Source of the DNA: Spirulina sp.
Lineage (GTDB): Bacteria > Cyanobacteriota > Cyanobacteriia > Phormidesmidales > Phormidesmidaceae
Reading direction: 5' to 3'
Length of the DNA: 64,000 nt
Assembly: GCA_044070495.1 (NCBI GenBank)
Contig: JBIPSI010000003.1
Span: 96,001-160,000 of the forward strand
Within the stretch, counting starts at the first letter, position 1. Every line of letters starts with the position of its first letter. The notes below the pieces were generated by a model, which saw nothing but the letters and a program-made list of their open reading frames with translations, was not told the DNA's origin and searched no databases. The position numbers were made by a program, and so were the translations under genes. This document shows, one piece after another, positions 5,406 to 36,310 of the stretch.

Positions 5406-5409
5406 ACGC

Positions 5410-13610: not shown

Positions 13611-13611
13611 G

Positions 13612-15464: not shown

Positions 15465-15488
15465 CTAAGATAGGGGCACGTTTGGAGG

Positions 15489-17956: not shown

Positions 17957-17962
17957 GGGGCT

Positions 17963-19012: not shown

Positions 19013-19048
19013 CAGGTCAAGTTAGGCCGTCCTGAAACCTACATCACC

Positions 19049-19883: not shown

Positions 19884-19940
19884 TGCTCTTGAGGGCCGTT
19901 GCGGTAGGATGGTGAGCATTGCCAACTGAGCGCGGCCATC

Positions 19941-22190: not shown

Positions 22191-22199
22191 GAGGTTGCC

Positions 22200-24461
22200 A
22201 TGTGGGACAGAGTACAAATTCAGGATCGGATGGAGGTTCGCGCAGGCGACCTCAATGCCATGCAGGACTACGCTAAGCAAGGCATCGAGGCACTGTTTTT
22301 TGACGGCATCGGCTCCGGCAAATATTACTCCGGGCTAGAGGTTTCTCAGATTAGTCCGACCGAGGTACGGGTTGCGCCAGGGCGTTACTGGGCAGCGGGG
22401 CAATGCTTTGCGCGGCTAGAAAATTTGCAGGTAGGCATCCAAGCCGAAACGATCCCGCTGATCAATCATCTCCCGGCTCAATACGAGCGGGCAATTGCGC
22501 TCTGTGTCTATGGCGAAGTTCGGGATACGAACGTGGAGCCACGAGACTTTTTAATCGATCTCGTGACCCAGGCGACTGAACCTGCTCCGGTACCTATCAA
22601 TCGGATGCAGTTGGCCCTGGTGGGGGTTTATCCAGGAGTAGAGAGTCCTCAGCCACAGATTCCCATCATTCCATCCGGGGTGCTGCACTTTTGCACTGTC
22701 TGGCTCCAACCCACGGGCATCGCTCGAATTGAGATGGTAGAGGCGAACCGGGTGCCTTCCACAGCAGACTGTTATCTCAACCTGGACGAGCTTCTACGCT
22801 GGAAGTCTTCGATTGAAGCGCTCCTAGAGAGCCTTCGGTCGGAATTAGCTGCGCTCTACGAACTGATCAAGAATTTCAGTCCCCTGTCTCAGCTTCGGCT
22901 CTTGGGGTTGGACATCGCCAGACTGAAGGAGTGGGCCAGCCTACCCGATACCTATAGCGCCTACGGATCCGACTGGTTTCTGGAGGAGGAGGAGTCTGAC
23001 CTGGGTTACTCCGGCTATGACGCTCGGATTGACTATGGCCTACTGTTTCCGATCTCAGCCTCGGCCAGCTCGGCAATCGCACTCCTGAGTCCCAATGATT
23101 CCAGTGTCAGGGTTAGCTATGGGCGAGTGTTGCCAACCTATACGAACCGACGACGGTTTGGCACCATGGGCTACACGGGCAAAGACATTGGACTAACGGT
23201 CGAGCAACAGTCCTTCGAGCTGCGCTCCTTCGAGATTTCGCAGTATGTCCACAAGTATGGCTGGAGCTATAACGACTACGGTGCCTGGTGGTCACAGAAC
23301 TATAACCAGGGCAAGGACTTTAGCCAGGGTTCGGCCCTTAACCTACACAACCCAAACGACAAGATCACCTTTGCCTATAACTGGACCTTGCAGTGGAACA
23401 ACCACTGGACGCTTCAGCCCGTGACCCAGCAGTACCTCGCTCCCACGACGACGACGGTGGTAGGGGCGATGGTGGCCCAGACCTTTATGGCTCCGGCCAG
23501 TATGTGGCTGACCGCTGTGGATTTACACTTCACCAAAATCGATAGTTCGGGCAGCGTTACCCTGGCGGTGTGCCGAGTCAGTGAGACGGGTGAGCCCCTG
23601 CTGGGCCAGGTCGTTACCCAGGCCACCCTGTCGCATTCCCAACTACGGCTGCATTCTCAAGCTACACAGTTCGCCCTGCCGCCTGCCTTCCTTTACTCTG
23701 GGCAGCGCTATGCCCTTTGTGTGATTAGTCAGGGGGCGCACCGTCTGGCTACGGTCAATGGTAAGGAGTTTACGGAGGGTACCCTATTCACCTCCACATC
23801 GGGCAGTTTCTTTGAGGGCGACTTAACTCAAGACCTGCTGTTCGCGATCTACAGCGCTCACTTCACCAATCCAAGAACCGTGGTAGCGCTCCAGCCGCTA
23901 TCACTCTCCGGCGGATTCTCGGATCTGGAAATCAATGCCCCCGCCTTCGTTCCCCAGGGCACCGATCTCATTTACGAAATCCAGGTCGGCGGGATCTGGC
24001 ATCCCCTCACCGAACCCACCTACTACCTTCAGTCATTGCCCGACTCGGTGCCGCTACGGGTCGTTTTCCTGGGTACAACCGACATTCAACCTGCCCTTGA
24101 ATTAACGGCTGATGCGATCCAGGTATCACGCCCCAAAACAACCTTGACCCATATCTCAACAGAGCGCACCCTGGCCAGCCCATCTAGCGACATCACGGTT
24201 AAGGTCAAAGCCCACGGGTTCAATGGCGCGGTGGGCCAGACCGATCACGATCTAGTCGCCAAGCTAGTTCTTCCTGATGGGGCGCTTCTAAGTCCTGCGG
24301 CCTCCAGCTTGGAAGTGCAGCCCGATGGGGCTACCGTCCATGTCTTCGAGTTTAGCCCTGGCACGGCCATCAACACCTATCGGGTACGCCTAGAGGGCTT
24401 TCGTTCAGGGGCTACCGTCCCCCCATTTGTCATTGTTGAGCGTCTGGATATTGCGGTCTAA
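22200..24461 (+). CDS. Large baseplate/tail-fibre-associated protein, paralogue 2 (753 aa)
   Basis: RBS GGAGG; shares YYxGLxV, LHFCxxWLxPxGIxRIEMVE, YDARxDxGLLF, AQTFxAP, FxEGTxFTS, VPLRxVFLGT and VPPF with paralogue 1. Confidence 0.7.
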   Translation: MWDRVQIQDRMEVRAGDLNAMQDYAKQGIEALFFDGIGSGKYYSGLEVSQISPTEVRVAPGRYWAAGQCFARLENLQVGIQAETIPLINHLPAQYERAIALCVYGEVRDTNVEPRDFLIDLVTQATEPAPVPINRMQLALVGVYPGVESPQPQIPIIPSGVLHFCTVWLQPTGIARIEMVEANRVPSTADCYLNLDELLRWKSSIEALLESLRSELAALYELIKNFSPLSQLRLLGLDIARLKEWASLPDTYSAYGSDWFLEEEESDLGYSGYDARIDYGLLFPISASASSAIALLSPNDSSVRVSYGRVLPTYTNRRRFGTMGYTGKDIGLTVEQQSFELRSFEISQYVHKYGWSYNDYGAWWSQNYNQGKDFSQGSALNLHNPNDKITFAYNWTLQWNNHWTLQPVTQQYLAPTTTTVVGAMVAQTFMAPASMWLTAVDLHFTKIDSSGSVTLAVCRVSETGEPLLGQVVTQATLSHSQLRLHSQATQFALPPAFLYSGQRYALCVISQGAHRLATVNGKEFTEGTLFTSTSGSFFEGDLTQDLLFAIYSAHFTNPRTVVALQPLSLSGGFSDLEINAPAFVPQGTDLIYEIQVGGIWHPLTEPTYYLQSLPDSVPLRVVFLGTTDIQPALELTADAIQVSRPKTTLTHISTERTLASPSSDITVKVKAHGFNGAVGQTDHDLVAKLVLPDGALLSPAASSLEVQPDGATVHVFEFSPGTAINTYRVRLEGFRSGATVPPFVIVERLDIAV

Positions 24462-24640
24462 TGCTACTCAAAAAAAATCTGGTGGATGATGCCGCCTACT
24501 GGATCACCCTCAAACAACCCGTGGAGATTGCGGGCAAGACGCGCTACCCGTCCAGGGGCAAGCTGCGGTTGACGGGTGCCGCTGTCAAAGCCATTTATGC
24601 GTCGTGCGCCACTATCACTCCAGCGCTGTTGGAGGACTAA
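24461..24640 (+). CDS. Small hypothetical tail-operon protein (59 aa)
   Basis: Missed by the ORF track: MLLKKNLVDDAAYWITLKQPVEIAGKTRYPSRGKLRLTGAAVKAIYASCATITPALLED*; TAATG overlaps at both ends. Confidence 0.75.
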   Translation: MLLKKNLVDDAAYWITLKQPVEIAGKTRYPSRGKLRLTGAAVKAIYASCATITPALLED

Positions 24641-26283
24641 TGCCCAGTATCTTCGAGCAAACCTATCGCTTCACGCCAGAAACACGCCTTGACCCAACCG
24701 AGCTAAATAACCGATTCTGGTCGGTCGATGCTCGCCTACGAGCGCTGGAGCGTCAGAACGCTAGCCTCGACCAGCTCATCGAAACCCTACGGGGCGATGG
24801 CGTTTCTCGGCTAACGACGGCGCTCCAGACCTTGTTGCCCAGCATCCTAGCCGATGCTCAGTCGGGTTACCTATCCGGGCTGGGGGATGCCTCGATTTTA
24901 TGGTCAGCCATTGATACGACCGGGGCCACTCCTGCCAGCATTGGGGCTGAGGTTGCCGGAACGATGGCGCTGCACCTGGCGACTCCCGGTGTTCACAGCA
25001 TCAGCGATGTGGCTGACCTAGGCAGTGCCCTCGCTGGGAAGCAGCCCTACAGTGCCCTGCTCACCGCCATCGCAGCAGCGGCACCAACGGAGTTAGGCGT
25101 TCCTGTAGGGACAGGGACAACCTATCAAGTGCTGGCCCTGGAGGCGGGCGACTCGATTGCGATTTCTCAAGTTGGAGATCGCCTACGGATCGATGCGACG
25201 GGCAGTGCCTCCGGGGAATCCAATTCCGGGGCAAACCTGGGAGCGGGCCTGCCGATCTATGCGGGCAAGGTGGGTACTACCCTAAACTTCAAGACATTGA
25301 TAGCTGCCGATAACAGCATCGACCTGGTGCAGGCAGGAGATTCACTCAGCCTGAGGGTTAATGCAGCGGCGCTAGAAATTGGGATAGATCAGGTCATCAA
25401 CCTGACCGAAGGACTGAGCGAAAAACAGCCACTCTCTAGTAACCTATCGACCCTGGCCGAGTTGGTCCCGGTTGCAGGTCAGGTGGTGACAGGAGCCGGG
25501 GGCAGCTTTCAATTGGCTACCCTTACCGCTGGGGACAACATCACGATCACCCCCAATGGCAGCACCATCACCATAGCGGCGATCAACACTGGCGAGGCCA
25601 ATACAGCCTCTAACTTGGGCAGTACAGGGGCGGGGATTTTTGCCGGTAAGTCGGACGTTGATCTCCGTTTTCGCCGCCTCAGTTCCCTCGCCGACTTTGT
25701 TGTTTTGTCCGAGGCCAGTAATACCGTCAACCTGGACTTTGACACCTCGGCCTTCTTGTCCGGTCTACCCAGTGCCGCGATCTCCTGGGGCAAAGTTAGC
25801 AAGGCGGGGGCCATGGCAGCGGATGTGGGCGCTGAGCCTACCGGGGCTGTCGCGACCCATGCTGGGGGCGCTGGGGTACATGGAATTTCTGGGGTTCAAG
25901 GGCTCCAGACAGCCCTGGACGCGAGGGTAGAACTGGTGAAGGGTTCCACCCAATCAATGCAGACTAGCCTTGCGATTACACCCGCCACAGCCAATGTGGG
26001 CAGCTATACGCCCAACCTAGCGGGACAAAACTATTTCGTCCTGACCCAGACCAGCAATACGACTATCAACAATCCGACCAACTTGCCTAGCGGTAAGGTG
26101 ATGTTCTTAGACCTCATCCTCATCCAAGACAGCACCGGAGGACGAACCACCACCTGGGGCAACGCCTACACCTGGGGCGATGGGGGTGCCCCAACCTTAA
26201 AAACGACACCCAATGCTGTCAACCTGCTGACCTTCAAGCACTGGAACGGCAAACTTTACTTCCTGGGGCATCGGAGCTATTAG
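24640..26283 (+). CDS. Tail fibre protein
   Basis: Start ATG 24640 after GGAGG; repeats HSISDVADLGSALAGKQ / HGISGVQGLQTALDAR and two GExNxxxNLG..G..I(Y/F)AGK units; C-terminal NPTN..QDSTGGRT..W..AP.L domain seen in fibre proteins. Confidence 0.75.
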   Translation: MPSIFEQTYRFTPETRLDPTELNNRFWSVDARLRALERQNASLDQLIETLRGDGVSRLTTALQTLLPSILADAQSGYLSGLGDASILWSAIDTTGATPASIGAEVAGTMALHLATPGVHSISDVADLGSALAGKQPYSALLTAIAAAAPTELGVPVGTGTTYQVLALEAGDSIAISQVGDRLRIDATGSASGESNSGANLGAGLPIYAGKVGTTLNFKTLIAADNSIDLVQAGDSLSLRVNAAALEIGIDQVINLTEGLSEKQPLSSNLSTLAELVPVAGQVVTGAGGSFQLATLTAGDNITITPNGSTITIAAINTGEANTASNLGSTGAGIFAGKSDVDLRFRRLSSLADFVVLSEASNTVNLDFDTSAFLSGLPSAAISWGKVSKAGAMAADVGAEPTGAVATHAGGAGVHGISGVQGLQTALDARVELVKGSTQSMQTSLAITPATANVGSYTPNLAGQNYFVLTQTSNTTINNPTNLPSGKVMFLDLILIQDSTGGRTTTWGNAYTWGDGGAPTLKTTPNAVNLLTFKHWNGKLYFLGHRSY

Positions 26284-26286
26284 GCC

Positions 26287-27669
26287 ATGCTGATCTACCC
26301 CCAGGCCATTATGGCGACCCAGGCTGCTGCTTTCGGAACAGACTATCCGGCCCTGAACTCTGCCAACGCGATGGCGGCAAGCTGCACCTGGTTGGCCATG
26401 CCGTCTCTATTCACGAAGGACTCACACCAGCAAGAACCAACCCTGTTTGGCGGAGCCACCATCGACAGCAGCGGTCTTCAGGTACCTAACAATGGTAGTG
26501 CCGGGGCAGCTTGGCCCAGCCCTAGCAACTTTGAGCGGATCAATCAATCGGGGCAGTTCTCCATCGCGTGGTTTGGCCGCCCCCTGTCCTACGCGACCGA
26601 CGGAATGTTCTTGAACGCTCCGCTGACGAGCACGACGACGATTTCTTTTACTCGCCTCGCTAGGGCTGGGAATACCGCCTACGGCCATACTCGCTGGCTC
26701 AATGCCGCTAATCATGTCTTCGCCGACCTCTATAACAGCGGCCAGGGCGATCACATCTTTGCCAATGCTACACAGCAGTATGTGTTGACCTTCAACGGCA
26801 GCACCGTTTGCCTCTATCGAAACGGTGCTTTGGCCTTCCAAGGCAACTTTTCGCCGGGGGTGGCCTCCAGTGATACGTCCGTTCGTCACATCACCCTTTG
26901 TAATCGTTCCCCAGATGACCTGCGAAACGGTATCCAGGCCGCCGATGTATCCCTCGCTGCTCTCTTTGACCGTGCCCTATCTCTGACCGAGGTGCAGTCG
27001 TTGGGGAGCAACCCTGGCCAGCTTATCCTCTCGAATGCGCCACCCTCCTACGATTACCCAGCAATTTCAGGGGCGCACAGCATTGGCCAGGACGTGGTCT
27101 GGGCACTCGATGCCACACGGTTTGAGAAAGATTCAACGGAGGCAGAACCCCTCCTTAACGGTGCGGCTAGCTTCACGACAGCAGGCTTGACCATGGCCAA
27201 CACCTGGAGCGACTGGGCGCAGTTCCAGATCGATTATGTTCCGGTTCGCAATGCGGGACAGTGTACGGTATGGCTCGATGCGAACATTACAAGCTGGGAA
27301 TCCTGGGGAGACCTAATGTTTGAGTCTCCCGATATTGGCGGCTGGCGAATCTTTCGGGATGCGAGTACAGCAGATATTGTCTTCCGCTGGCCGAGCAGTA
27401 AAAGCGCTAGGTTCTCAAACCAAGTGATGACGACATCCCAAGCCTTGGCCATTACCCACGATGGTGGCACCGTGCGCCTCTACCGAAATGGGGTGCTAGT
27501 CGCCACGACCTCCGGCCAGTCCATCGGAACAGGCGAGTATGGCGCAAATCGGTTTGGCTATGGCGTGAATATGGTGCTGCGGCGGGCCTTTGTCGCGAAG
27601 CGTTCACTGTCGGCCAGCGAAATATCGAGTCTCTATAGCAACTGGAGTCAGTTTCTCCTCAACCCGTAA
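26287..27669 (+). CDS. Tandem LamG/ConA-like domain protein, putative receptor-binding protein
   Basis: Two internal repeats starting DYPALNSANAM / DYPAISGAHSI, each with LT(F/H)xGxTVxLYRNG and RxLSxxE(V/I)xSL. Confidence 0.75.
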   Translation: MLIYPQAIMATQAAAFGTDYPALNSANAMAASCTWLAMPSLFTKDSHQQEPTLFGGATIDSSGLQVPNNGSAGAAWPSPSNFERINQSGQFSIAWFGRPLSYATDGMFLNAPLTSTTTISFTRLARAGNTAYGHTRWLNAANHVFADLYNSGQGDHIFANATQQYVLTFNGSTVCLYRNGALAFQGNFSPGVASSDTSVRHITLCNRSPDDLRNGIQAADVSLAALFDRALSLTEVQSLGSNPGQLILSNAPPSYDYPAISGAHSIGQDVVWALDATRFEKDSTEAEPLLNGAASFTTAGLTMANTWSDWAQFQIDYVPVRNAGQCTVWLDANITSWESWGDLMFESPDIGGWRIFRDASTADIVFRWPSSKSARFSNQVMTTSQALAITHDGGTVRLYRNGVLVATTSGQSIGTGEYGANRFGYGVNMVLRRAFVAKRSLSASEISSLYSNWSQFLLNP

Positions 27670-27764
27670 AGGTCATAGCAACAGCAGGATGACTAACCCT
27701 TGAAAGATCGTCCAGCCAACAACGGCGATCACGTTGCTGTGTTCAAGGTCTTGTGGTGGCATCC

Positions 27765-28946
27765 CTAAAGTCCTGCATTGTATTTGGCCAAGATGGAGCG
27801 GGTATAGGCATCGATGCTCGGATACTCCCGCCCGCCGTAAAATTGTCGCCCTGTGTTGTTGTAGAGGTGGGGACGGCCACTATACCAACGACTCGCCACG
27901 CGCCGAATGGCGGTGTCCTGGTCATGGCCCTGGGCTAGTTCCTCCGCCAGGTAAAGGCCTAATCGGTGGTTGATGATAGCGATTTGGATGGCAGGGCTAT
28001 TGAGGAACTCCCCCCGGCTCACCTCGCGACCTAGGGCGGCACGACTCCAAGCAGGTAGGTTATTGGGCATCACCTGACCATAGCCCAGCGCACCGGAGTC
28101 GGGATTGACGGCACGAAAATTGCCGCTAGATTCATGACCAATGATGACTCGGCGCAGGCGGTCAAGGGATACGCCCCCCTGGGTAGATCCGCCCCCGCCG
28201 GAGCCATAGGCCGTCGGACGCAGGGCGGAATGAAAGTTCGACCGTCCGTTTCCGTTGAAGTCGGTGTGGATGGAGCGCTGCCGCACTGGCGCGGATCGGG
28301 TGCTGCGATCCACCATCTGCCCCTGCCCAATATAGACACCGACATGGGTTACTTTTCGTCGTCCATCAGCCCCCGGCAACACCCGTCCACCACCGTTGTA
28401 GGTTTCGTGGAACATGACGATATCTCCGGGCTGAAGCTGGGTCGGGTCTAGAATGATCTGCCCTAGTTCTGGCCCAAAGAATGAATCCGCCATCAGTGGC
28501 CCTGCGCTACCCTTTGCCGTCGGAATGGCTATCCCAGCCTCTTGTAGGACGACTCTTACAAAGTCGGCACAGCGCTCGGTTTGCCTAGGCTTAAAGTCTC
28601 GTCCCACCCATGCTGTCGCCTTGGTGGCCACCGTCTGGCCTAGGGCCGACCCGCCAGAGGGGGCAACCGCATTGACGGAAGGATTTGCCTGTCCTAGCCC
28701 TAGCCATTGCCCAGCCCGACTCTGGCTAATCTGGGCACCCAAGGCCTGAACCGCCATGACCAGGGCACACAGGCCGATGATGGCCCAGATAATGCCCAGT
28801 TCAATGACATCGCTGGAGGTACCCGCTGCATTGGCGGTTTCTTCATTGTTATCCCGATTTTTCTGGGCGACCCGCAGAAGCTGCTCTAGCAGTTCCACCT
28901 GTCGCTTCTGGATGGCATGGATATCATCGGTAGCGGGGGCGGTCAC
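27765..28946 (-). CDS. Membrane-anchored bifunctional peptidoglycan hydrolase (NlpC/P60 + lytic transglycosylase-like)
   Basis: TM helix LGIIWAIIGLCALVMAV; ERCADFV, LQPGDIVMF, THVGVYIG (NlpC/P60 Cys/His); GHESSGNFRAVNPDSGALGYGQVMP (SLT-like Glu). Likely GTG start 28946 (GTGA overlap). Confidence 0.85.
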   Translation of the reverse strand: MTAPATDDIHAIQKRQVELLEQLLRVAQKNRDNNEETANAAGTSSDVIELGIIWAIIGLCALVMAVQALGAQISQSRAGQWLGLGQANPSVNAVAPSGGSALGQTVATKATAWVGRDFKPRQTERCADFVRVVLQEAGIAIPTAKGSAGPLMADSFFGPELGQIILDPTQLQPGDIVMFHETYNGGGRVLPGADGRRKVTHVGVYIGQGQMVDRSTRSAPVRQRSIHTDFNGNGRSNFHSALRPTAYGSGGGGSTQGGVSLDRLRRVIIGHESSGNFRAVNPDSGALGYGQVMPNNLPAWSRAALGREVSRGEFLNSPAIQIAIINHRLGLYLAEELAQGHDQDTAIRRVASRWYSGRPHLYNNTGRQFYGGREYPSIDAYTRSILAKYNAGL

Positions 28947-29158
28947 GGTGCATCGCTCCAAAATTCGTCAAAGCCATTGGCGACAGGATCTTCCTGGAAT
29001 GGGTCAACGGGGGGTGGAGGTGGCTCATCCCCGTTATTCTCCACATCTGGTTGGATGACCCCTTCGAGGTGGTGAGCAAACGGGATACGGTATTCGAGCA
29101 TCTTGAACAACATGGCGATGGTCAACAGCCACGCCAAGATCCGAAGCGGCTTGATCAT
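28943..29158 (-). CDS. Small membrane protein (71 aa)
   Basis: N-terminal hydrophobic helix, Pro/acidic tail; 4-bp overlaps with both neighbours. Confidence 0.65.
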   Translation of the reverse strand: MIKPLRILAWLLTIAMLFKMLEYRIPFAHHLEGVIQPDVENNGDEPPPPPVDPFQEDPVANGFDEFWSDAP

Positions 29159-29382
29159 TCCGGCTGGCCCCCCTGGATACGGCAGTTTTCGCCATTCTTG
29201 TTACACATCAGCGCCTCAGCCTCTCCGGCCTGCTGTAGTGCCCCGTTCCACATCCCGGCAAACACCAGACTGGCTGGCTGGATAGCATCTACCACGGCGA
29301 AAAAAATGGGACTCAAAACCCCGGCGCTACCCAGGGATACCACGACGACAAGGACGGTCATGTGGCCAACTACCTTAAACAT
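29155..29382 (-). CDS. Small membrane protein (75 aa)
   Basis: Start ATG 29382 overlapping the ATPase stop; MFKVVGHMTVLVVVVSLGSAGVLSPIFFAVV... Confidence 0.65.
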   Translation of the reverse strand: MFKVVGHMTVLVVVVSLGSAGVLSPIFFAVVDAIQPASLVFAGMWNGALQQAGEAEALMCNKNGENCRIQGGQPE

Positions 29383-30631
29383 TGAAGCGATCTCCGTATT
29401 CACTGAACAACACTCGTACCCGTTCGTCCCGGTAGTTCCCGGTCTTCTTGTCGCGCCCCATGTGACCATGGAGCTTCAGCAGTTTGCACAGTCCGGTAAA
29501 ACTGGTCACGCTGCCGTCCTCTAGGGCCGCGTCTACCTTGGCCCGCACCTGGTCGATCCAAGGGGCATCATCAAACACCCAGTTCACTTGGCACTGGCTG
29601 CGGTCGGGCAATGTCTTGACCTGGGCGGTGGAGAAGGGCAGCTTTGAGAAGCTACCGGGCCGCACCACAGCGGTTGTAAATCGGGCGGTCGGCGAAGACG
29701 CAATCTGCGCCTTGAGGGTGGCAATCAGTTCTTTGCTATTGGCCTTGATGTCCTGGGGCCAGGACACCGTAGAGTCCCCCACTGTCATGCCCATAATCAC
29801 AGCGGTCATCGGCCACAGCACGGAGCTATCAATGCCGTTCTCGCCCTTCTTCGGGCTGTGCATTCCTAGGTAGATCCGCATCCCAAACTTGCGCCCACCC
29901 CGGACGATCTCGCCGATCCACTCCAGCGCTTGCTCCCGTCGATCCTTCGGGATACAGTCCTGAAACTCGTCGATGACGATTGCAGCGATGGTTTCGGTTT
30001 TCAAATTTCCGGCCATCCGCCGCTTAAACTCTTGATGAAAAGCCTTCAGCGCTGCAAAGGCATCCTCGCCACTTTTTCGGGCGGGCACCTGCTCCCTGGG
30101 GATACCGTTCAGCCAGGTATCGATAGGCTTTTCCTCGTCCGGGTCATAGTGGGGGTCACAGATAGCCCAGAGACAGTCCAGCCCGTGGGCTTTGACCAAC
30201 ATATCGACGTGATGCTTCAAATTGACGGACTTACTGGTGCCGGGTTCACCGATGTAAACGGTAGACCAAGACCAGAACTCGTTGGACACCCAGGACGCGG
30301 GGGCCAGATCTTCCAGCACCAATGTCCTCATCGGTCTCAGCCGTCGGGCGATTGCTGGCCCCAGGTCGGGGAAGTTGTCCACGTCATTCACGGCTATATC
30401 AAAGTCGTCCAAGACCTGCCCCATGGCAACAACAACTTCGGTAGCCGTTACCTGGTACTCCCGTCGGTAGTAGCGCGAGAGTAAGAGACTGGGCAGGCCC
30501 GTCATACCGCCGATGATGGCGACGGGAAGAGAATTCGCTACTAGACCCAGGACGCAATTCACCGTTCCGGCTAGGCCCAGGACGCCGCTCAACAGCACCA
30601 ACCGAGGCGCTGCATTCTGCTGCCGTTCCAT
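29375..30631 (-). CDS. Membrane-anchored FtsK/HerA/coupling-protein-like P-loop ATPase
   Basis: Two N-terminal TM segments; Walker A-like GEPGTSKS, ICDPH, Walker B IVIDEFQD, GRKFGMRIYL (arginine-finger region). Confidence 0.75.
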   Translation of the reverse strand: MERQQNAAPRLVLLSGVLGLAGTVNCVLGLVANSLPVAIIGGMTGLPSLLLSRYYRREYQVTATEVVVAMGQVLDDFDIAVNDVDNFPDLGPAIARRLRPMRTLVLEDLAPASWVSNEFWSWSTVYIGEPGTSKSVNLKHHVDMLVKAHGLDCLWAICDPHYDPDEEKPIDTWLNGIPREQVPARKSGEDAFAALKAFHQEFKRRMAGNLKTETIAAIVIDEFQDCIPKDRREQALEWIGEIVRGGRKFGMRIYLGMHSPKKGENGIDSSVLWPMTAVIMGMTVGDSTVSWPQDIKANSKELIATLKAQIASSPTARFTTAVVRPGSFSKLPFSTAQVKTLPDRSQCQVNWVFDDAPWIDQVRAKVDAALEDGSVTSFTGLCKLLKLHGHMGRDKKTGNYRDERVRVLFSEYGDRFNV

Positions 30632-31413
30632 TACTCCGTCCCTCCATAGAGAATCCGCTGTAGTCCACCGGGGCGGGCTGCTGCTGCTGGAGTTGAGACG
30701 GCAGGGGCCACAGGAACCGCAGGGGCCGGGTCGGTGGAACGGTCAGTTCCTTCCCAGATCCGCTGGGCCTCTGCCAACTGACCTGCCTCTAGCCGTTCGA
30801 GGTTGTCTCGGCGTAGCTCAACCCTAGCCGTCACCTCATTGAAGACCTGGGCCAAACGAGCTACGTCCCTGGCTACCGAGTCACTGCACAGGGGCAGTCC
30901 CTCACGGCTGTATAGCAGGTCGCCAAGGTAGAGCAAGGCTTGGGTGTCCAGAATGATGGCCCGCGCCTTGCCAATGCTTTCCGCATCTCCCTGGATGGAT
31001 GCGGAGGTGGTCTGGTTCCACTGATTGACACGCTTTAGATGAGCGGCCATCTCAAGCTGAAAGACCTCTTCCATGGGCTGGCTGGTCTGCCGCGCCCAGG
31101 AGTGCAGCTTGGCACTTAGCTCCTGCGCCCTGGCGCAAAGGAGAGCCTCGTTGAGCGCTGACCAATCGTCGTAGGCCACGCGCACAGCCTGATGTGCCAC
31201 TAACAGATCGCTTTGGTAGATGAAGGCTTCCTCGGCCTGAGCAATGGCTTCTCGTTCCGCATCCCGTTCTGCCTGTACCGCATCAACGGCGGTACGAACC
31301 GCTGTCAGGGGCAGAGATATGGTGGGATTTCGATAGCTGATGACAGCGCGGATAACCCCAGCACTGATGATCGTTCCACCCACAATAATCAAGGCCCAAT
31401 ACGCTCGTTTCAT
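30631..31413 (-). CDS. Hypothetical bitopic coiled-coil protein (260 aa)
   Basis: N-terminal TM, helical A/E/Q-rich body; TAATG overlap with the ATPase. Confidence 0.7.
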   Translation of the reverse strand: MKRAYWALIIVGGTIISAGVIRAVISYRNPTISLPLTAVRTAVDAVQAERDAEREAIAQAEEAFIYQSDLLVAHQAVRVAYDDWSALNEALLCARAQELSAKLHSWARQTSQPMEEVFQLEMAAHLKRVNQWNQTTSASIQGDAESIGKARAIILDTQALLYLGDLLYSREGLPLCSDSVARDVARLAQVFNEVTARVELRRDNLERLEAGQLAEAQRIWEGTDRSTDPAPAVPVAPAVSTPAAAARPGGLQRILYGGTE

Positions 31414-31415
31414 CG

Positions 31416-31751
31416 CTACTGTCCCTCTCTCAAATCTTGCAAAACATAGGCAATCGCCGCTCGTTGGTCATCGGACAGATCCCGTCGTCCGGTCTGTCGG
31501 TAAAGAAATAGGGCCACCTCCGCGTTGATCCATCCCTGCAATTGGGTTCCAACCCAGCGCCATAGGATCAACCAAGCCACCAGGCAACCCGTGATCGCGA
31601 TCAGGCTCCCGGCCTGATAAACATCCAGCAAGTCAAACTGTCGCCCTAGGTAGTAAGCGATCACGATTCGCCGAACGATGGTGCTGGTGACGATGCCACC
31701 CAAGAACACCGTGAGCGCAGTAACCCAGAACAACCTGCTGATTCGTCTCAT
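31416..31751 (-). CDS. Hypothetical 2-TM membrane protein (111 aa)
   Basis: Two hydrophobic helices; 2-9 bp gaps to neighbours. Confidence 0.7.
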   Translation of the reverse strand: MRRISRLFWVTALTVFLGGIVTSTIVRRIVIAYYLGRQFDLLDVYQAGSLIAITGCLVAWLILWRWVGTQLQGWINAEVALFLYRQTGRRDLSDDQRAAIAYVLQDLREGQ

Positions 31752-31760
31752 CCGACTACC

Positions 31761-32132
31761 TCACAGCACTGACAAGTCAACTTCGATGGCTCCCCCACCG
31801 GGGGCGGGTGCTGGGGGAGGGCCGGGGCTGGGGGTGTCGCTTTTGCTGGGCACGGGCGGAGCCTCTCCCGCCTCCAATGCCGCAATCAAGGACTGTACTT
31901 GGTCGGCATACTTGGCGATCAGCGCGGCTTGCCGATTATTCAAAGCTGGATGGTGCTGGGCCTGCTCGGCGTAGACCGTCAGGACGTGGGGCAGCAGGGT
32001 ACAAAGGCTTTTCGCGTAAGGGTGATACTCGATCATTGCTTTATAGATTTCGAGTGCCCTGGCCTGCTCCGGGTTATCCAGGTTGAAGCGTAGAGTCTCT
32101 TGATGGACATTGCCGCCATTACGAGGGGCCAT
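31761..32132 (-). CDS. Putative ParR-like adaptor/DNA-binding protein
   Basis: 123 aa, 8 bp downstream of parM; ETLRFNLDNPEQARALEI beta-helix start and a disordered Pro-rich tail. Assigned mainly by position. Confidence 0.5.
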   Translation of the reverse strand: MAPRNGGNVHQETLRFNLDNPEQARALEIYKAMIEYHPYAKSLCTLLPHVLTVYAEQAQHHPALNNRQAALIAKYADQVQSLIAALEAGEAPPVPSKSDTPSPGPPPAPAPGGGAIEVDLSVL

Positions 32133-32140
32133 GGCACCCC

Positions 32141-33220
32141 CTAACCCATCTGGGCCATCAGGACAGCATTGATCAACTGTGGCTCAATTCCAGGAAGCCG
32201 GACAACTTGAAACCTACCGCCCGTCGCCTTCTCCAGCGGAGCCAATAGGCCACTCGCCCCACCAACGATATAGACCATACCGAGCTGCCCCCAGACCGAG
32301 GCCCAGTTATCCTGCGTGAGCTGGTGCAGCAGATCCCGATTCCACTGCCGTACCACCTCTTCAACCAGTCCCGTGAAGTCATGGGCTTCGCCCGATTGCT
32401 CGTAGATGTAGCGCCGATCCTCCGGCGCATTGCCTCCCTGGACACGAATAATGTCCAAGATGCTGGCCCGGTCAGGCGTATGGCCCCGAACCCGGTGGGC
32501 AAACCCAGACGCAATCGCCCCCGCTAGTTCCTTCATAGCGGGGGCGACAAAGGACACCTGCCCCGACTTTCCGGCACTGCGAATGATGGTGCCCGACTTA
32601 GACCATACCGAGCAGGTCAGGTCGCCCGTCCCGGCATCGATCACCCCGGTCAGGGGATAGCCGCTCAGCGATTGGGGCACCTGTCCCGTTTCCATCGCCC
32701 AACTCCACACCGGGTATCCCTCCGTAACCAGTTCCACACTGGCCGTTGGCTGAAAGCGCTCGAAGCCACGCTGAAACAGTCGGGCATGGAAATCGGCAAC
32801 GGCGTTGCCAATTTGACTCGCCACCTCCTGCCACTGCACTTTGCTGGAGTCGGGCACCAGCAGACGAACCGTAACGGCCCCCGACCGCACCCCGGCCAGC
32901 GCTAGTGCCGCCGCCACCGCAATCGGAGTGTGTTCTACCTTGCCTGCCTCAAATAGTGATCTCCCGCCCAAATCACGGGCCAAATTACCAAACGCATAGG
33001 TCTCTCCCTGGAGGGTCACTAAGACCGACTCTGCATCAGGTCGAGCATCAGCAACCTCTAGCTCACTCAGCCGTTTCACAGACGCGATAAAGGAGACCTG
33101 CCCACCAGCCGTCGCCATCTTGAAATAGCCATTGCCAGCATCAACGCAGACCACCTCCGGCAACCGTACATCGCACTTTCGCTTTGCCCCCGCACTTGCT
33201 ACCACAATCCACCTCCCCAT
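32141..33220 (-). CDS. parM: ParM/StbA-family actin-like ATPase
   Basis: Phosphate-1 VDAGNGYFK, EG connect, phosphate-2 IDAGTGDLT, adenosine IVGGAS, PQLINA. Confidence 0.85.
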   Translation of the reverse strand: MGRWIVVASAGAKRKCDVRLPEVVCVDAGNGYFKMATAGGQVSFIASVKRLSELEVADARPDAESVLVTLQGETYAFGNLARDLGGRSLFEAGKVEHTPIAVAAALALAGVRSGAVTVRLLVPDSSKVQWQEVASQIGNAVADFHARLFQRGFERFQPTASVELVTEGYPVWSWAMETGQVPQSLSGYPLTGVIDAGTGDLTCSVWSKSGTIIRSAGKSGQVSFVAPAMKELAGAIASGFAHRVRGHTPDRASILDIIRVQGGNAPEDRRYIYEQSGEAHDFTGLVEEVVRQWNRDLLHQLTQDNWASVWGQLGMVYIVGGASGLLAPLEKATGGRFQVVRLPGIEPQLINAVLMAQMG

Positions 33221-33500
33221 TCAGATTGAGTCAAATCTGAGGCAGTTCGCCTCAAGTGCGACTAAACTAACACGATTAAATATAGTTGTCACGCATCAGG
33301 AATACGAATAACTGATGGTGATGATGAATTTGCTGAATGCAGCACTGGAACGGCCTACTGAGCCGTAAACTGCTGACTCGATCCGAGGTAAATCCGACGC
33401 ATAAAGCCAATGATTCGCTCGAAGTTGATCAACTTTGAGGCAGGTTGACTCTGGCCACAGCAATTCCCTCTATCTGCCTGCAATCTGCCTCGCTGTAGAG

Positions 33501-34070
33501 TCACTTTGCCTCAGGATGCGGGGACTTACCGCTGAGAATCTTAAAGTTCGGGTCGCCTACCACCAGTCCACAGGTTGCCATCGCGGAGATGGCTTCTCTG
33601 GCCCAGTCGATTTGCTGGGAGGGGCGGAGGGTCAGTGGTTGCGCCAGACCGTACAGAATCTTTTTGACGTTGAGATCGCGACGGGGCTGAAGTCCTTGGA
33701 GGTCTGCGGTAGCCACAAACAGCACATCATAGGAGTACAGCCCGTCAGCATCAGGCCAGTGACTCGCTAGGGCAATCGTAATTTGGTGGGTATGCCGATT
33801 ACCCTGGTTTGCCATCCCATCTAAGTGATCAATCAGGACATGGCAATCGGGTGCAGTGCAGGCTCCTGTTCTGATCGGCATCCAGATGGCCGTCCCTACA
33901 TCCCTAGGGCAGTGTTCAGGATTGCGACGAACGGATAGCAAAAGACCTGCTCCAGGGACGTGGTGGGCGGTGATTAACTCGTAGGGTCGTCGAGAAACTT
34001 TACCCTCACGCCACCAGACCAGCGCGTTCAGCCACTCTGCGATCGCCGTTAGGATTCTGTTAAGACGCAT
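33501..34070 (-). CDS. Hypothetical protein (189 aa)
   Basis: Longest ORF in the interval, ATG start; no recognisable motif. Confidence 0.55.
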   Translation of the reverse strand: MRLNRILTAIAEWLNALVWWREGKVSRRPYELITAHHVPGAGLLLSVRRNPEHCPRDVGTAIWMPIRTGACTAPDCHVLIDHLDGMANQGNRHTHQITIALASHWPDADGLYSYDVLFVATADLQGLQPRRDLNVKKILYGLAQPLTLRPSQQIDWAREAISAMATCGLVVGDPNFKILSGKSPHPEAK

Positions 34071-34171: not shown

Positions 34172-34531
34172 GTGGCAGATGAGCAGAGCCTACAAGAGCA
34201 GATCGAGGTCTTGCATCAAGAGATCATCGTTCTTCGAGATCGGTTGGAGGATCTGGAGCACGGCGTTAAGTCAATTCCGTTCATTATTCCAACTCGGAAA
34301 AGAACTAAGGTCTGGGCCTTTTTGGCTTCAGTGCTAACTACGGCGGCGCTGGTTTTTGCCCTTTCTCCGCACCAGATTCAGGTTGGGAACTGGAGGTATG
34401 ACTCACCGGGCATCAAGCTCGATGTAATCACCAGCGTGGCCGCACTGATCGGTGTATGGGCAACGATTCGGGAACACTTGAGGGATAAGCATGACTATCG
34501 AACCCACGGCGGCGGCTCCAAGCATGGCTGA
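34172..34531 (+). CDS. Small 2-TM membrane protein with N-terminal coiled coil (119 aa)
   Basis: RBS GAGG, GTG start; ATGGCTGA overlap with the downstream GGDEF-EAL gene. Confidence 0.65.
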   Translation: MADEQSLQEQIEVLHQEIIVLRDRLEDLEHGVKSIPFIIPTRKRTKVWAFLASVLTTAALVFALSPHQIQVGNWRYDSPGIKLDVITSVAALIGVWATIREHLRDKHDYRTHGGGSKHG

Positions 34532-36113
34532 GCTGTTAACCCTACTGGAGCAAACAGCGGGGCTGCGACTTTTTATCAAAAACACCGAGGGCCAAATTCT
34601 GTGGGCCAATACAGGCGCGGTCAGCGACCTAGATGACGGAAGCCATATCCATGGCCCAGCTAGCCTCGACAGTGCGCTGGCATCGGACATCGATCAGCGG
34701 GGGGATGAGTTAGCCCTTCAGCGTGGACACAGCCAGGGGATTGAACCGTTGGGTGATCGCTTTATCCAAATCTGGAAGACCCGGATCGAGCGAGAGGGAC
34801 AAACCTATATTTTGGGTGGCTACCTCGACTGCACCGAGCGGGTGCTGAGTGAAGAGCGAGAGCTACGCCGCCTGGAGTACGAAGCCACCCACGACAGTCT
34901 CACCGGGCTGTTGAACCGAGGCTCCTTTTACATGCTCCTAGAGTCGGCCTGCCAACAACGTCGTCCAAAGCTGGCGCTGCTCTATCTCGACCTGAATGGT
35001 TTTAAGCGAATCAACGATATCCAGGGCCACCTAGAGGGAGATCGGCTCCTGCGGGTCGTCGCGAACCACCTTACGGCCTCCGTTCGGAGCGGGGATGCCG
35101 TGGCTCGTATGGGCGGTGACGAATTTACCGTGCTGCTACCGGGAGCCTCATCGGTTGAAGCCATGGTTGTCGCGGATCGCATTAGTAAACTCATGCCGAA
35201 GGACGGTCTCACCACGGCGATGGGAATTGCGGCATGGGAGAAGGGCGATACCCCAGACGCCATTGTGGGGCGAGCTGACGAGCTAATGTTCCTCGCCAAG
35301 CGCGATGGGGTACCGTGCCGCACCTCAAGCACTTGTACAACATCCATTGACTTAGTACAGGCACTCGACCAAGCGCTGGAACAGGGTGAGATCGTTCCCT
35401 ACTTCCAGCCGATTGCGGCCAGCCGAAATCGCCGAATCATTGGCTATGAATTGCTAGCCCGCTGGGTGCGTCCTGGGGGGCAGGTGGTGTCCCCCGCTGA
35501 GTTTATGCCGATCCTGGCGGAGGCCCGCTGGATGTCGCGACTAGACTGGTTGATGTTGCGGGCCGGAATGAGGGCGCTGGAGCACTTTTCCGACCAGTGG
35601 CTCTCGATCAACATCTCTGAAGAAACGCTGTTCGATGCCGAGTTCAGTAATCGGCTGGCCAGGGAGCTAGAGTCCCACTTTGCCTCCACAGAATTTCTGC
35701 GCCTGGAAATCTCCGAGTCCATCGCAATTAGCGTGCAGCCCCTGCTCGAAGGGAGAGATGCGATTACTCAACTCAAAAACCTGGCCAGTGCCGATGTAGA
35801 CATTGGCCTCCTGGTGGATGATTATGGCAGCGCCTACGCTCACCTCCTGGCTATTATGCGCCTCTGTGAGGAAGTTCCCAACGTGCGGGCCATCAAGCTG
35901 GTGGGTGATCTGGTGCGAAACATTGACAACACCCCCGCCAAAATCACGATCTGCCGAAACGCGATTGAACTGGCCCACGGCCTGGGCCTGGAAACCATCG
36001 CCGAGGGCGTTGAGACAGAGGCGGAGCTAATGACCTTACGAGGGCTACACTGCGATTCCGTACAGGGATACTACTTGGGTGTCCCTCTCGCCATGGATGA
36101 ATACCTGCCCTGA
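34524..36113 (+). CDS. PAS-like/GGDEF/EAL c-di-GMP enzyme
   Basis: HDSLTGLLNR, DLNGFKRIND, RSGD I-site, GGDEF; YFQPI, ELLAR, SINIS, LEISE, DDYGSAY, AEGVET, QGY. Alternative start 34491. Confidence 0.93.
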   Translation: MAELLTLLEQTAGLRLFIKNTEGQILWANTGAVSDLDDGSHIHGPASLDSALASDIDQRGDELALQRGHSQGIEPLGDRFIQIWKTRIEREGQTYILGGYLDCTERVLSEERELRRLEYEATHDSLTGLLNRGSFYMLLESACQQRRPKLALLYLDLNGFKRINDIQGHLEGDRLLRVVANHLTASVRSGDAVARMGGDEFTVLLPGASSVEAMVVADRISKLMPKDGLTTAMGIAAWEKGDTPDAIVGRADELMFLAKRDGVPCRTSSTCTTSIDLVQALDQALEQGEIVPYFQPIAASRNRRIIGYELLARWVRPGGQVVSPAEFMPILAEARWMSRLDWLMLRAGMRALEHFSDQWLSINISEETLFDAEFSNRLARELESHFASTEFLRLEISESIAISVQPLLEGRDAITQLKNLASADVDIGLLVDDYGSAYAHLLAIMRLCEEVPNVRAIKLVGDLVRNIDNTPAKITICRNAIELAHGLGLETIAEGVETEAELMTLRGLHCDSVQGYYLGVPLAMDEYLP

Positions 36114-36133
36114 CGACTTTTTCTGCGTATTCA

Positions 36134-36209: not shown

Positions 36210-36259
36210 GCAGCCGCCTTCTAAGCGGTCGGTCGCTGGTTCGATCCCAGCATGGCCCG
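36210..36259 (+). other. attR: 3' fragment of tRNA-Arg(TCT)
   Basis: GCAGCCGCCTTCTAAGCGGTCGGTCGCTGGTTCGATCCCAGCATGGCCCG: anticodon arm (TCT), T arm GCTGG-TTCGATC-CCAGC and 3' acceptor strand; 5' acceptor strand and D arm absent. Confidence 0.88.
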
Positions 36260-36310
36260 TTACCAGCGTAACCCTTACGCAGAGACACTTTTAACTTAGA
36301 TCCCTGCTTT

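Follow-up and report, generated by a model that had tools for sequence, protein, structure and literature searches.

The window, that is, the whole 64,000-nucleotide stretch of DNA that was analysed, contains an operon of eight minus-strand genes (g1 to g8), located towards the right end of an island of 92.6 kb. The initial annotation described these genes as overlapping or separated by at most 9 bp; all eight open reading frames are present and the spacings agree, being, in order from g1 to g8, 8, 9 and 2 bp, followed by overlaps of 1, 8, 4 and 4 nt. The genes are packed, with overlapping start and stop codons. A ninth gene, g0, which was absent from that account, is conserved beside g1. The features are as follows.

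9474..27669, plus strand: prophage tail module (tape measure, gpU, gpX, gpD-like, V, W, J, I and fibre-region proteins)
28946-27765, minus strand: g8, predicted anchored bifunctional wall hydrolase, 393 aa (GTG start) or 398 aa (TTG at 28961)
29158-28943, minus strand: g7, 71 aa, weakly hydrophobic N-terminus, Pro-rich acidic tail, no cysteine
29382-29155, minus strand: g6, small membrane protein, 75 aa, one or two hydrophobic anchors (longest ORF start 29469)
30631-29375, minus strand: g5, membrane-anchored FtsK/HerA-fold P-loop ATPase, 418 aa (motifs, profile and fold)
31413-30631, minus strand: g4, 260 aa, one N-terminal anchor, helical middle, Pro/Ala-rich tail
31751-31416, minus strand: g3, 111 aa, two hydrophobic helices (hydrophobicity scan)
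32132-31761, minus strand: g2, ParR-like adaptor, 123 aa, N-terminal strand-helix, Pro-rich linker, conserved C-terminal IEVDLSVL tail
33220-32141, minus strand: g1, actin-like ParM-type ATPase, 359 aa (ALP_N, PHROG and PDB profile matches)
33221..33500, minus strand: upstream region of the operon, AT-richer, with GAGGCAG/CTGCCTC-type motifs, repeated and inverted
33501..34070, minus strand: g0, 189 aa, of no known family, conserved upstream of the ParM-like gene
34172..34531, plus strand: divergent 119-aa open reading frame with a hydrophobic core
34491..36113, plus strand: GGDEF-EAL protein, within the island, with the operon on one side and attR on the other
36214..36260, plus strand: attR, a perfect 47-bp direct repeat of the tRNA-Arg(TCT) 3' end

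The island is integrated in tRNA-Arg and flanked by perfect 47-bp repeats, the partner of attR lying beyond the window at C3:39579-39625, and a sister genome lacks the 92.6 kb altogether. It is the prophage of a contractile-tailed (myovirus-type), tRNA-integrated temperate cyanophage, not a plasmid or ICE, and so a context other than the one first assumed; the operon is an accessory or early-type cassette of this phage. The tail module and the operon are convergent. The GGDEF-EAL gene shows no DNA-level conservation in the nearest relatives; GGDEF/EAL genes also adjoin the module in two other genomes, G022 and G474. In a further genome, G465, a look-alike of the 119-aa open reading frame, judged by eye and unscored, occupies the same place.

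Two sub-modules in one operon

The operon comprises two sub-modules, the segregation pair g0-g1-g2 and the conserved cassette g3-g8, and the families originally assigned to its eight genes stand at the superfamily level. No ATPase match was found in the three genomes with close ParM homologues (G022, G020 and G465), and other membrane proteins come after ParR in G465; the two sub-modules are therefore separable. In favour of a link between them, close homologues of ParM and of the ATPase match twice by source and contig size (7575, ncbi; 5653, lgn).

The g1 protein matches the PHROG partition protein family (2.2e-9) and, by profile against the PDB, CorM (3.7e-4, the best match) and pCBH ParM (8.7e-4); its match to ALP_N (E 1.1e-4, 22.9 bits) is below the cut-off of 26.3. 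Homologues of g1 are 54-71% identical to it. Homologues of g2 adjoin ParM homologues in G022, G465 and G020. In G465 (E 5.7e-68) and G020 (1.4e-54), a homologue of g0 immediately precedes the ParM gene, g0 itself having no match in Pfam, PHROG, PADLOC or the PDB. Complex prediction placed the conserved C-terminal tail of g2 (residues 113-123) on g1 with a score of 0.64, against 0.32 for the best control; a mark of 0.64 is reached by 116 of 157 solved pairs and by 2 of 215 mismatched pairs, and this pass may reflect likeness, because like complexes have already been solved. The runs share at least 55% of contacts, with a partner pLDDT of at least 63. The upstream region 33221..33500, in which repeats D1, D7, I2, I3 and I7 were found, may hold a promoter and a parC-like site, a putative centromere. 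Conserved synteny and the complex prediction support the ParM-ParR pairing, and g0-g1-g2 is taken as an actin-like segregation pair of the ParM/ParR type that has a candidate centromere upstream.

The g5 ATPase consists of a TM hairpin (~8-58), a motor (~107-354) and a small C-terminal helical domain (355-418). Its Walker A residues, Walker B residues and G-R-K motif are invariant in the family (13 sequences), and a hydrophobic segment lies ahead of Walker A in 94 of 123 full-length family representatives. Profile comparison with the PDB retrieved DUF87/HerA structures at 9.5e-9 and 6.2e-6, and g5 falls short of the Pfam models FtsK_SpoIIIE, DUF87 and TrwB (TrwB_AAD_bind); judged by sequence, it is closer to the HerA type, a group in which many proteins do not export DNA. 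In exhaustive structure alignment, the best match of the g5 model (mean pLDDT 78) is TcpA (6o1x), the coupling protein of pCW3 conjugation (Z 17.3, 3.1 A, 209 residues), so the likeness to a Gram-positive conjugation ATPase proposed at first holds for the structure. FtsK (2ius, Z 15.9), EccC (15.2), VirB4 (14.4), HerA (14.2) and TrwB (13.0) follow, and since the scores of TcpA, FtsK, EccC, VirB4 and HerA span only about 3 Z, they separate neither the sub-clade of g5 nor its substrate. Foldseek gave E values of only ~1e-4 and ranked RecA first. Folded alone (pLDDT 85), the C-terminal domain matches no fold significantly (highest Z 3.8), and no DNA-recognition domain was demonstrated; no cluster of 7-9-mer repeats resembling a clt site was found in 27000-36400.

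The ATPase was initially said to be accompanied by four membrane proteins. Three small ones are clear, and the fourth, g7, is marginal, having no segment above the hydrophobicity threshold. The hydrolase g8 is predicted to run from a cytoplasmic N-terminal tail through a TM segment (47-65) to an NlpC/P60 endopeptidase and a lytic-transglycosylase-like glycosidase. Its match to NlpC/P60 is above the cut-off (1.4e-7) and that to SLT is only 0.026, below the cut-off, with SLT or Transglycosylas-like domains present in homologues. The glycosidase domain is ~33% identical to domains of Streptomyces phage minor tail proteins/glycosylases and of a Rhizobium phage tape measure.

Recurrence of the cassette in cyanobacterial mobile elements

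The core cassette begins with a ~100-aa TM protein and a ~240-aa N-anchored protein, followed by the ATPase of FtsK/HerA fold with its TM anchor, by one or two small TM proteins and by a peptidoglycan hydrolase with two activities. Other mobile elements of cyanobacteria carry it too, with synteny in all five loci compared (the window, G467, G474, G003 and G015), each of which pairs the ATPase with an anchored bifunctional hydrolase. Positional counterparts of g4 (222-268 aa) are found in all four loci with upstream sequence, the homologue in G467 lying directly 5' of the ATPase (7.7e-19), and counterparts of g6 (67-84 aa) lie between ATPase and hydrolase in the other four loci. Furthermore, G022 keeps the order ParM, ParR, g3, g4, with homologues of g3 (E 3.2e-21, at the equivalent position) and g4 (8.6e-14). 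The genes thus co-occur elsewhere, as the initial annotation had anticipated. The hydrolase domains are swapped between loci (NlpC/P60, M23 or CHAP, with SLT, Transglycosylas-like or Phage_lysozyme2), which argues for selection on the combination.

Homologues of the ATPase are also present in three lytic phages of filamentous cyanobacteria, TM-anchored, beside a small multi-TM protein and in an early or replication region; AND75530 of cyanophage N1 is 27.9% identical to g5 over 58% of the query (E 2e-12). Conservation on plasmids, suggested at first as a check, was not borne out, the ATPase family being found on none of 72,556 plasmids. Moreover, the absence of a relaxase and of VirB4, first noted for the window, extends to the whole genome, where six-frame searches detected neither a relaxase (PF03432, PF08751) nor a VirB4-type AAA_10 domain, and no standard T4SS or relaxase that would explain the genes was found there. 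Within the literature searched, the cassette is undescribed.

Candidate functions of the cassette

The operon looks like a stripped-down DNA-transfer machine, and the reading favoured here, held tentatively and as possible rather than probable, is that the cassette may be a phage-borne device for dsDNA translocation or spreading, working like TraB/Spd. The ATPase would form a ring at the membrane and pump dsDNA of the phage or prophage through a passage built or gated by the small membrane proteins, and the anchored hydrolase would open the peptidoglycan locally. ParR bound to the upstream repeats would load ParM filaments, which would push a DNA copy to the pole or septum holding the translocon. 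DNA would then pass between cells with no need of a relaxase, VirB4 or a virion, as with Streptomyces TraB and Spd, or as with TcpA and TcpG in the Tcp system of clostridia.

An unlikely reading, though one that keeps some weight, is phage release or wall remodelling, in which g8 is the lysin, the small membrane proteins are holin- or spanin-like and the ATPase controls or powers g8, on the model of FtsEX-EnvC-amidase control. In its favour, Pfam scans of island ORFs detected a peptidoglycan-hydrolase domain in g8 alone, although small ORFs and several hitless ORFs could still be lysins, and the glycosidase of g8 resembles phage tail protein and tape measure domains. By eye, the N-terminal anchor, helical body and Pro-rich tail of g4 recall i-spanins, and in four of the five loci small TM ORFs run into the start of the hydrolase gene. 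However, the operon lies on the strand opposite to the structural genes and adjoins attR, the G467 cassette is flanked by Rad52/HNH genes and an integrase, and the N1 ATPase lies among replication genes, with 'lysozyme' genes annotated elsewhere. The absence of cysteine means that g7 cannot be a lipoprotein o-spanin, and FtsK-like ATPases are not known to us from any lysis cassette.

Superinfection exclusion or defence is improbable. Here, a membrane HerA-like ATPase would act with its partners to stop or degrade DNA entering the cell, or would set off damage to the wall upon infection. The prophage end beside attR and the GGDEF-EAL gene is a typical site for accessory genes, the HerA-type defence ATPases SIR2/HerA and DptH are among the sequence and fold matches, and weak PADLOC matches were obtained (mad8, 5.4e-6; HerA, 3.6e-4). 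Nevertheless, no PADLOC system model was matched and only one of the 11 proteins scanned gave any match, while the homologues of lytic phages lie in early or replication regions. To our knowledge, known defence systems do not usually include ParMR or a wall hydrolase with two activities.

Type VII-like export of a phage protein by the FtsK/SpoIIIE-fold ATPase and small partners, with the hydrolase clearing the wall, is very unlikely: the best fold matches of g5 include the ATPase domains of EccC and EssC (Z 13.5-15.2) and the module does have small membrane partners and a wall hydrolase, but g5 has a single ATPase domain where EccC and EssC carry three, TcpA and FtsK outscore both, and no WXG100-like gene was recognised in Pfam and PHROG scans. 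An equally slim chance is given to a hijack of cytoskeleton and wall, in which ParMR would act like cyanobacterial CorMR, forming a cytoskeleton associated with the membrane, and steer wall remodelling by g8 instead of segregating DNA; CorM is the best PDB profile match of g1, but this match is no better than that to plasmid ParM, and the upstream repeats fit a centromere. According to the CorMR preprint (10.1101/2025.06.27.661541), CorMR is a ParMR system of the chromosome that has been repurposed to serve cell shape and may be linked to peptidoglycan biogenesis, and CorR has an N-terminal amphipathic helix as its membrane-binding feature, whereas g2 begins with a strand-helix motif and shows no such helix by eye.

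Comparison with known systems

For the translocation or spreading device favoured above, a close parallel is Streptomyces TraB/Spd (pSVH1), in which TraB and the Spd membrane proteins together are described as a DNA translocation complex. Both have a membrane-anchored FtsK-like motor, several small membrane proteins and overlapping stop and start codons, both lack a relaxase and T4SS, and both involve the wall. Spd homologues have been noted on actinophages (PMC4447253). In contrast, no sequence relation to TraB/Spd was detected, g5 has only ~420 aa and misses Pfam FtsK_SpoIIIE, and neither a TraB-type recognition domain nor 8-bp repeats were demonstrated for the cassette, which has a dedicated bifunctional hydrolase and is carried by a tailed prophage in a cyanobacterium.

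The clostridial pCW3 Tcp system (TcpA, TcpG) likewise has an N-terminal membrane anchor and a motor paired with a two-domain wall hydrolase. The g8 NlpC/P60 domain gave weak, non-significant matches to Tn916-type (ICEBs1/Tn916 CwlT-type) hydrolases (9ubf, 0.0087; 4hpe, 0.028), and the Phage_lysozyme2 domain in one relative's hydrolase adds to the Tcp/CwlT-type likeness. However, VirB4 (TcpF), a VirB6-like protein and a relaxase are all missing here, and in g8, unlike the Tcp/CwlT-type hydrolases, the endopeptidase domain comes first. The segregation pair resembles ParMRC (R1, pCBH) and CorMR in the matches of g1 to ParM and CorM structures, the adaptor tail modelled on the ATPase and the upstream repeats; it differs in its sub-threshold ALP_N score and in being prophage-encoded and, to judge from the gene order, co-transcribed with membrane and wall proteins.

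A further parallel is TdtA of Thermus thermophilus ICEth1 (transjugation), described in PMC5365140 as a membrane-associated hexameric HerA/FtsK-type ATPase that pushes DNA from the donor. That element is inserted in a tRNA gene 3' end, with 47-bp direct repeats and no classical T4SS, and the island appears to share all three traits. TdtA, however, is partnered by a NurA-like nuclease and a restriction enzyme instead of by ParMR and a wall hydrolase, and an ICE of 14 kb carries it rather than a phage. Phage-encoded FtsK-like motors, with a role given as unknown, have been reported in mycobacteriophage Cluster J, where they have no membrane domain (PMC3706429). Among the cyanophage proteins, AND75530 and its relatives are true homologues of g5, with N-terminal hydrophobic helices; no hydrolase or ParMR lies beside the N1 ATPase gene.

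Prophage context of the operon

The window is C3:96001-160000, part of a 5.3-Mb assembly. In a sister genome (G443), the sequence corresponding to ~39.6 kb of C3 is fused straight to that at ~132.2 kb, revealing an empty site.

Features of the inserted island
C3:39579-39625 and C3:132214-132260 (the latter being window 36214-36260): 47-bp perfect direct repeats, with tRNA-Arg(TCT) at the site in the assembly studied
9474-27669, plus strand: contractile-tail module (tape measure, gpU, gpX, gpD-like, V, W, J, I and fibre-region proteins)
L042:10208-11476 (in a stretch of the prophage left of the window): Gp3-like directionality factor

Because the sister genome has an empty site and tRNA-Arg(TCT) and the 47-bp repeats lie at the junctions, the operon is located within a 92.6-kb tRNA-integrated prophage (C3:39626-132260). 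A BLAST search found two copies of the repeat and no third att copy that would indicate a tandem second element. The island combines the hallmarks of an integrated prophage: a tRNA target, flanking repeats, an empty site in a relative and virion genes (terminase, MuF-like, capsid, neck, sheath, tube, tape measure and baseplate). Left of the window lie the sheath and tube genes, followed by the terminase subunits, MuF-like protein, major head protein and neck protein, and beyond the head genes come early genes encoding ParB, RadC, a Dam-like enzyme, an HTH protein and the Gp3-like directionality factor. No match to the integrase families PF00589 or PF07508 was detected in the island; a 374-aa ORF next to its left end (attL) has no match. 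The operon and the fibre-region genes are convergent. About 3 kb separates the operon from the right end (attR), and this interval is occupied by g0 (a ninth gene, upstream of the first operon gene), a 119-aa ORF and a gene for a GGDEF-EAL protein.

The tail module also harbours ~26 kb of defence-like genes between the tube/chaperone-like genes and the tape measure (L020:3781-19933, left of the window, and window 178-9031). Among their products are a WD40 protein, a PLD nuclease-like protein, an MZB-domain protein, a helicase, an MmeI-type restriction-modification enzyme, an SNF2 helicase with an EVE protein, a LexA-like S24 repressor, a NERD-UvrD helicase and a pentapeptide/TRADD-N protein. 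The GC content falls to 0.48-0.51 at window 1-6000. The fibre region contains two adjacent paralogues of ~750 aa (19941-22190 and 22200-24461), matching phrog_17470 at E 2.8e-114 and 7e-136. Finally, GGDEF and/or EAL (c-di-GMP) genes adjoin the ParMR/ATPase module at three loci, window 34491-36113, L057:1-1634 (genome G022) and L027:5825-6907 (genome G474), and may represent linked cargo or chance.

The segregation pair and the membrane ATPase

The initial annotation had described a tightly packed set of eight genes (g1 to g8), which the ORF spacing bears out: the ORFs run on the minus strand from 33220 to 27765, with gaps of 8, 9 and 2 bp followed by overlaps of 1, 8, 4 and 4 nt. Of the four membrane proteins proposed, those encoded by g3, g4 and g6 have clear hydrophobic helices, but the stretch in g7 falls below the hydrophobicity threshold.

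The product of g1 (359 aa), which had been proposed as an actin-like ATPase, indeed shows the actin-like ATPase of a ParMRC system. It matches ALP_N (E 1.1e-4, just below the Pfam cut-off) and a PHROG partition protein (2.2e-9), while a profile built from ten homologues retrieved CorM (3.7e-4) and pCBH ParM (8.7e-4) among solved structures. Its phosphate-binding and adenosine motifs can be seen by eye. The next protein, g2, is a 123-aa product without a known family, listed earlier as a small adaptor candidate. This idea gains from its adjacency to ParM, conserved in four loci, and from a C-terminal motif (IEVDLSVL, IEVDMSKL or IEIDFSKL) that follows a Pro-rich linker. The predicted g1-g2 complex scored 0.64 versus 0.32 for the best control, the complex-score mark being reached by 116 of 157 solved pairs and 2 of 215 mismatched ones; the contact residues of g2 (113-123) correspond to the conserved tail, model runs share at least 55% of contacts and the partner pLDDT is at least 63. 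The model supports g2 as a ParR-type adaptor binding g1 through its C-terminal tail, as a likeness to ParM-ParR and not as proof, since similar complexes have already been solved. Upstream of g1 (33221-33513), direct and inverted GAGGCAG-type repeats are a candidate centromere (parC) or operator, although short families of two copies can be fortuitous.

Close ParM homologues (54-70% identity) are present in three other genomes, G022, G020 and G465. The first keeps ParM, ParR and the g3 and g4 homologues in order, with overlapping starts, up to the contig end. The other two keep g0, ParM and ParR, and in G465 different membrane proteins come next. No ATPase match was found in these three genomes, whose ParM-bearing contigs are all shorter than 6 kb. 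As ParM and ATPase homologues twice share both the source and the longest-contig figure (7575, ncbi; 5653, lgn), two metagenome contigs probably hold both genes.

The fifth gene, g5, encodes a 418-aa protein in which a TM hairpin at the N-terminus precedes a P-loop motor, in keeping with the membrane-anchored FtsK/HerA-type ATPase first suggested. All 13 aligned sequences keep residues G128, G131, K134, S135, D221, E222 and G246-R247-K248 (Walker A, Walker B and a G-R-K motif) unchanged, and the family profile matches solved DUF87/HerA proteins at 9.5e-9 and 6.2e-6. The AlphaFold model (mean pLDDT 78.3) was compared with 48,161 chains. The best match was TcpA of pCW3 (Z 17.3, 3.1 A over 209 residues), followed by FtsK (Z 15.9), EccC (Z 15.2), VirB4 (Z 14.4), HerA (Z 14.2) and TrwB (Z 13.0); these matches (Z 13-17) span residues ~107-354. 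Foldseek gave weaker results (E ~1e-4, RecA on top). With Walker A, Walker B and a RecA-like core, g5 is firmly assigned to the FtsK/HerA fold, at the level of the superfamily and not of a sub-clade.

Placement within FtsK, HerA or VirD4 proper was rejected because the corresponding Pfam models do not reach g5. FtsK_SpoIIIE (PF01580) gave no match to the protein at E<=0.1 or to its locus (C3:125375-126631) in a six-frame genome search at E<=1, DUF87 (PF01935) none at the locus at E<=1, and TrwB_AAD_bind none to g5. HerA-type proteins carry an N-terminal barrel domain, where g5 has its TM hairpin, although the family profile matches a solved DUF87 protein at 9.5e-9. Type IV coupling proteins combine N-terminal TM helices with a motor domain and are partnered with a relaxase and a VirB4-based T4SS. 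As a candidate of this type (VirD4/TrwB/TcpA), g5 has the hairpin and the fold likeness, but no match to TrwB_AAD_bind, a relaxase or AAA_10 was found. The absence of relaxase and VirB4, at first noted for the window, extends to the whole genome (97% complete), where no PF03432, PF08751 or VirB4-type AAA_10 was found. As for the genome's own FtsK, a Pfam FtsK_SpoIIIE query retrieved only short P-loop-level matches (the best at 25.3 bits, model positions 28-64) and no full-length canonical FtsK.

In the TraB-type dsDNA transfer of Streptomyces, a C-terminal winged-helix domain reads clustered 8-bp repeats (clt). The C-terminal 74 residues of g5 fold confidently alone (pLDDT 85); the best fold match (Z 3.8) is not significant, several winged-helix domains appear among the weak rows, and no significant match to a TraB/FtsK-gamma-like recognition domain was obtained. 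No clt-like local clusters of 7-9-mers were detected within 27000-36400.

Conservation of the cassette and its carriers

The protein g5 belongs to a small unnamed family without a Pfam model. A search of 5.8 billion clustered proteins yielded no more than ten close relatives (51-59% identity), none of them named. Of 1.84 billion representatives searched exhaustively with the profile, 297 match at E<=1e-3; 123 of these reach <=1e-10 and 28 reach <=1e-30. Among the 150 matches listed, 123 have at least 380 aa, and 94 of these 123 carry a hydrophobic segment N-terminal to Walker A. The Atlas places g5 among cyanobacterial and Uroviricota clusters, with the viral FtsK_SpoIIIE clusters farther out; an Atlas search with g4 gave no usable match. 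Within the genus, whole-genome searches gave ATPase relatives in 3 of 53 genomes, and within the order in 4 of 173 (E<=1e-10). In a phylum sample of 401 genomes, the window was the only close match, the others being weak P-loop matches. A pattern-based search with the ATPase or its alignment, which reaches close relatives only, retrieved none from viral, genome or metagenome contigs.

Neighbourhood conservation on cyanobacterial plasmids had been suggested as a check. The layout is shared by five loci, each with the ATPase, small ORF(s) and a hydrolase, and with an anchored protein upstream in the four where the contig does not end there. By tblastn, the ATPase was found in 0 of 72,556 plasmids.

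Layout of the cassette at the five loci (upstream anchored protein; ATPase; small ORFs; hydrolase)
Window: 260 aa (g4); 418 aa; 75 + 71 aa; NlpC/P60 + SLT-like
G467: 268 aa (g4 homologue, 7.7e-19); 421 aa; 67 + 132 aa; M23 + Phage_lysozyme2
G474: 240 aa; 401 aa; 77 + 81 aa; M23 + Transglycosylas/SLT
G003: 222 aa; 394 aa; 77 aa; M23 + SLT-like
G015: contig ends upstream; 399+ aa; 68 + 84 aa; weak CHAP match, 2e-41 to g8

The endopeptidase head is swapped among loci while the architecture remains constant, as expected for parts that work together. In G467, the cassette lies between Rad52-like/HNH genes and an integrase, followed by small terminase, portal-like, capsid and tail-completion genes; this carrier is another prophage, unrelated to that of the window except for g4 and g5. 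The G015 cassette is near a tape-measure-like protein, ParA and an integrase, and that of G003 near a PriCT_2 primase, on a 13.4-kb contig with no terminal overlap indicative of circularity.

Among 50,697 phage records, tblastn found the ATPase in three: Nostoc phage N1, Dolichospermum phage Dfl-JY23 and Anabaena phage YongM2. The N1 homologue (525 aa, with hydrophobic helices at the N-terminus) is encoded in the early region near a helicase and a polymerase, and the 'lysozyme' genes are annotated away from it. Within L022:7142-10074 of this phage, a 95-aa protein with ~3 hydrophobic helices precedes the homologue, and a 100-aa single-TM protein lies farther up. A small membrane set thus accompanies the ATPase even in a lytic phage.

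Possible roles and known parallels

All parts of the cassette belong to known kinds, while their combination is without description in the limited full-text collection searched. Their most plausible joint role, held tentatively and short of probable, is a phage-borne device for dsDNA translocation or spreading. It is placed first because a TM-anchored FtsK/TcpA-like motor is encoded together with small membrane proteins, an anchored two-domain wall hydrolase and a segregation pair, no relaxase or VirB4 was found in the genome, and TraB/Spd and TdtA offer precedents. The ATPase would form a ring at the membrane, acting on double-stranded DNA that passes through a channel; the anchored hydrolase would open the wall locally, and ParM could deliver DNA to the machine.

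The hydrolase, g8, bears on this reading and on its main rival. It has a cytoplasmic N-tail and one TM at 47-65, and its NlpC/P60 domain scores 31.9 bits against a cut-off of 23. Its SLT match is weak (14.5 bits, under the cut-off), an assignment supported by homologues on record with SLT or Transglycosylas-like domains. The proposed membrane-anchored NlpC/P60-transglycosylase is therefore retained, with the anchored glycosidase plus endopeptidase architecture of bifunctional conjugative wall hydrolases (CwlT/TcpG/PrgK type). PDB matches to Tn916-like hydrolases are weak, and the likeness holds at the level of architecture. A hypothetical protein of Streptomyces plasmid CP108637.1 (L044, 16.9 kb; 7549-8367) has a domain 36% identical to the g8 glycosidase domain. 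It adjoins a LysM protein, and the small replicon, which also encodes a GH25 enzyme and an SSB elsewhere, looks more phage-like than conjugative.

A lysis or wall-remodelling device would draw on the same protein: g8 has the only wall-hydrolase domain found among the island ORFs scanned, its glycosidase domain resembles phage tail lysins, and g4 is built like a spanin. Phage lysis cassettes, however, are placed among late genes and encode an endolysin and a lipoprotein o-spanin. The cassette has an early or opposite-strand placement in three phage contexts, the operon being on the strand opposite to the late genes and the G467 cassette in an early region, and g7 is without cysteine; this role is unlikely, if still the strongest rival. 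Even in that role, the cassette would be a conserved machine coupling a ring ATPase to a bifunctional hydrolase, one without description in the literature searched.

An exclusion or defence role appears improbable, as PADLOC matched no defence system to the operon region. Type VII-like secretion and a CorMR-like cytoskeletal role, the latter drawing on 10.1101/2025.06.27.661541, are both very improbable. The cassette connects ParMR with envelope proteins just as non-canonical roles are coming to light for ParMR systems of cyanobacteria.

A more specific form of the translocation reading, in which cyanophages of filamentous hosts carry their own TraB/Spd-like translocon and spread along the filament without virions, relaxase or T4SS, is distinctly unlikely. 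ParMR filaments would push a phage genome copy to the septum, where dsDNA would enter the neighbouring cell by way of the membrane-anchored ATPase, the small membrane proteins that partner it and the anchored hydrolase. The limited collection searched yielded no literature linking cyanophages or prophages to septal junctions or cell-to-cell spread in filamentous cyanobacteria. Should the cassette move DNA, a relaxase-free transfer apparatus of the FtsK type would be on record for the first time beyond actinomycetes and Thermus, and for the first time on a tailed phage, and phages would have a virion-independent route of spread within multicellular cyanobacteria.

Phage FtsK-like genes have been reported in mycobacteriophage Cluster J, their role being given as unknown (PMC3706429); unlike the anchored g5, the proteins described there are without a membrane domain. 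In Thermus, TdtA is a membrane HerA/FtsK ATPase that exports DNA and is encoded by a tRNA-integrated element (PMC5365140). Streptomyces, with its relaxase-free dsDNA transfer, offers the best parallel: there, TraB and the Spd membrane proteins make up one translocation complex, and the authors of that work had already remarked on Spd homologues in actinophages (PMC4447253).
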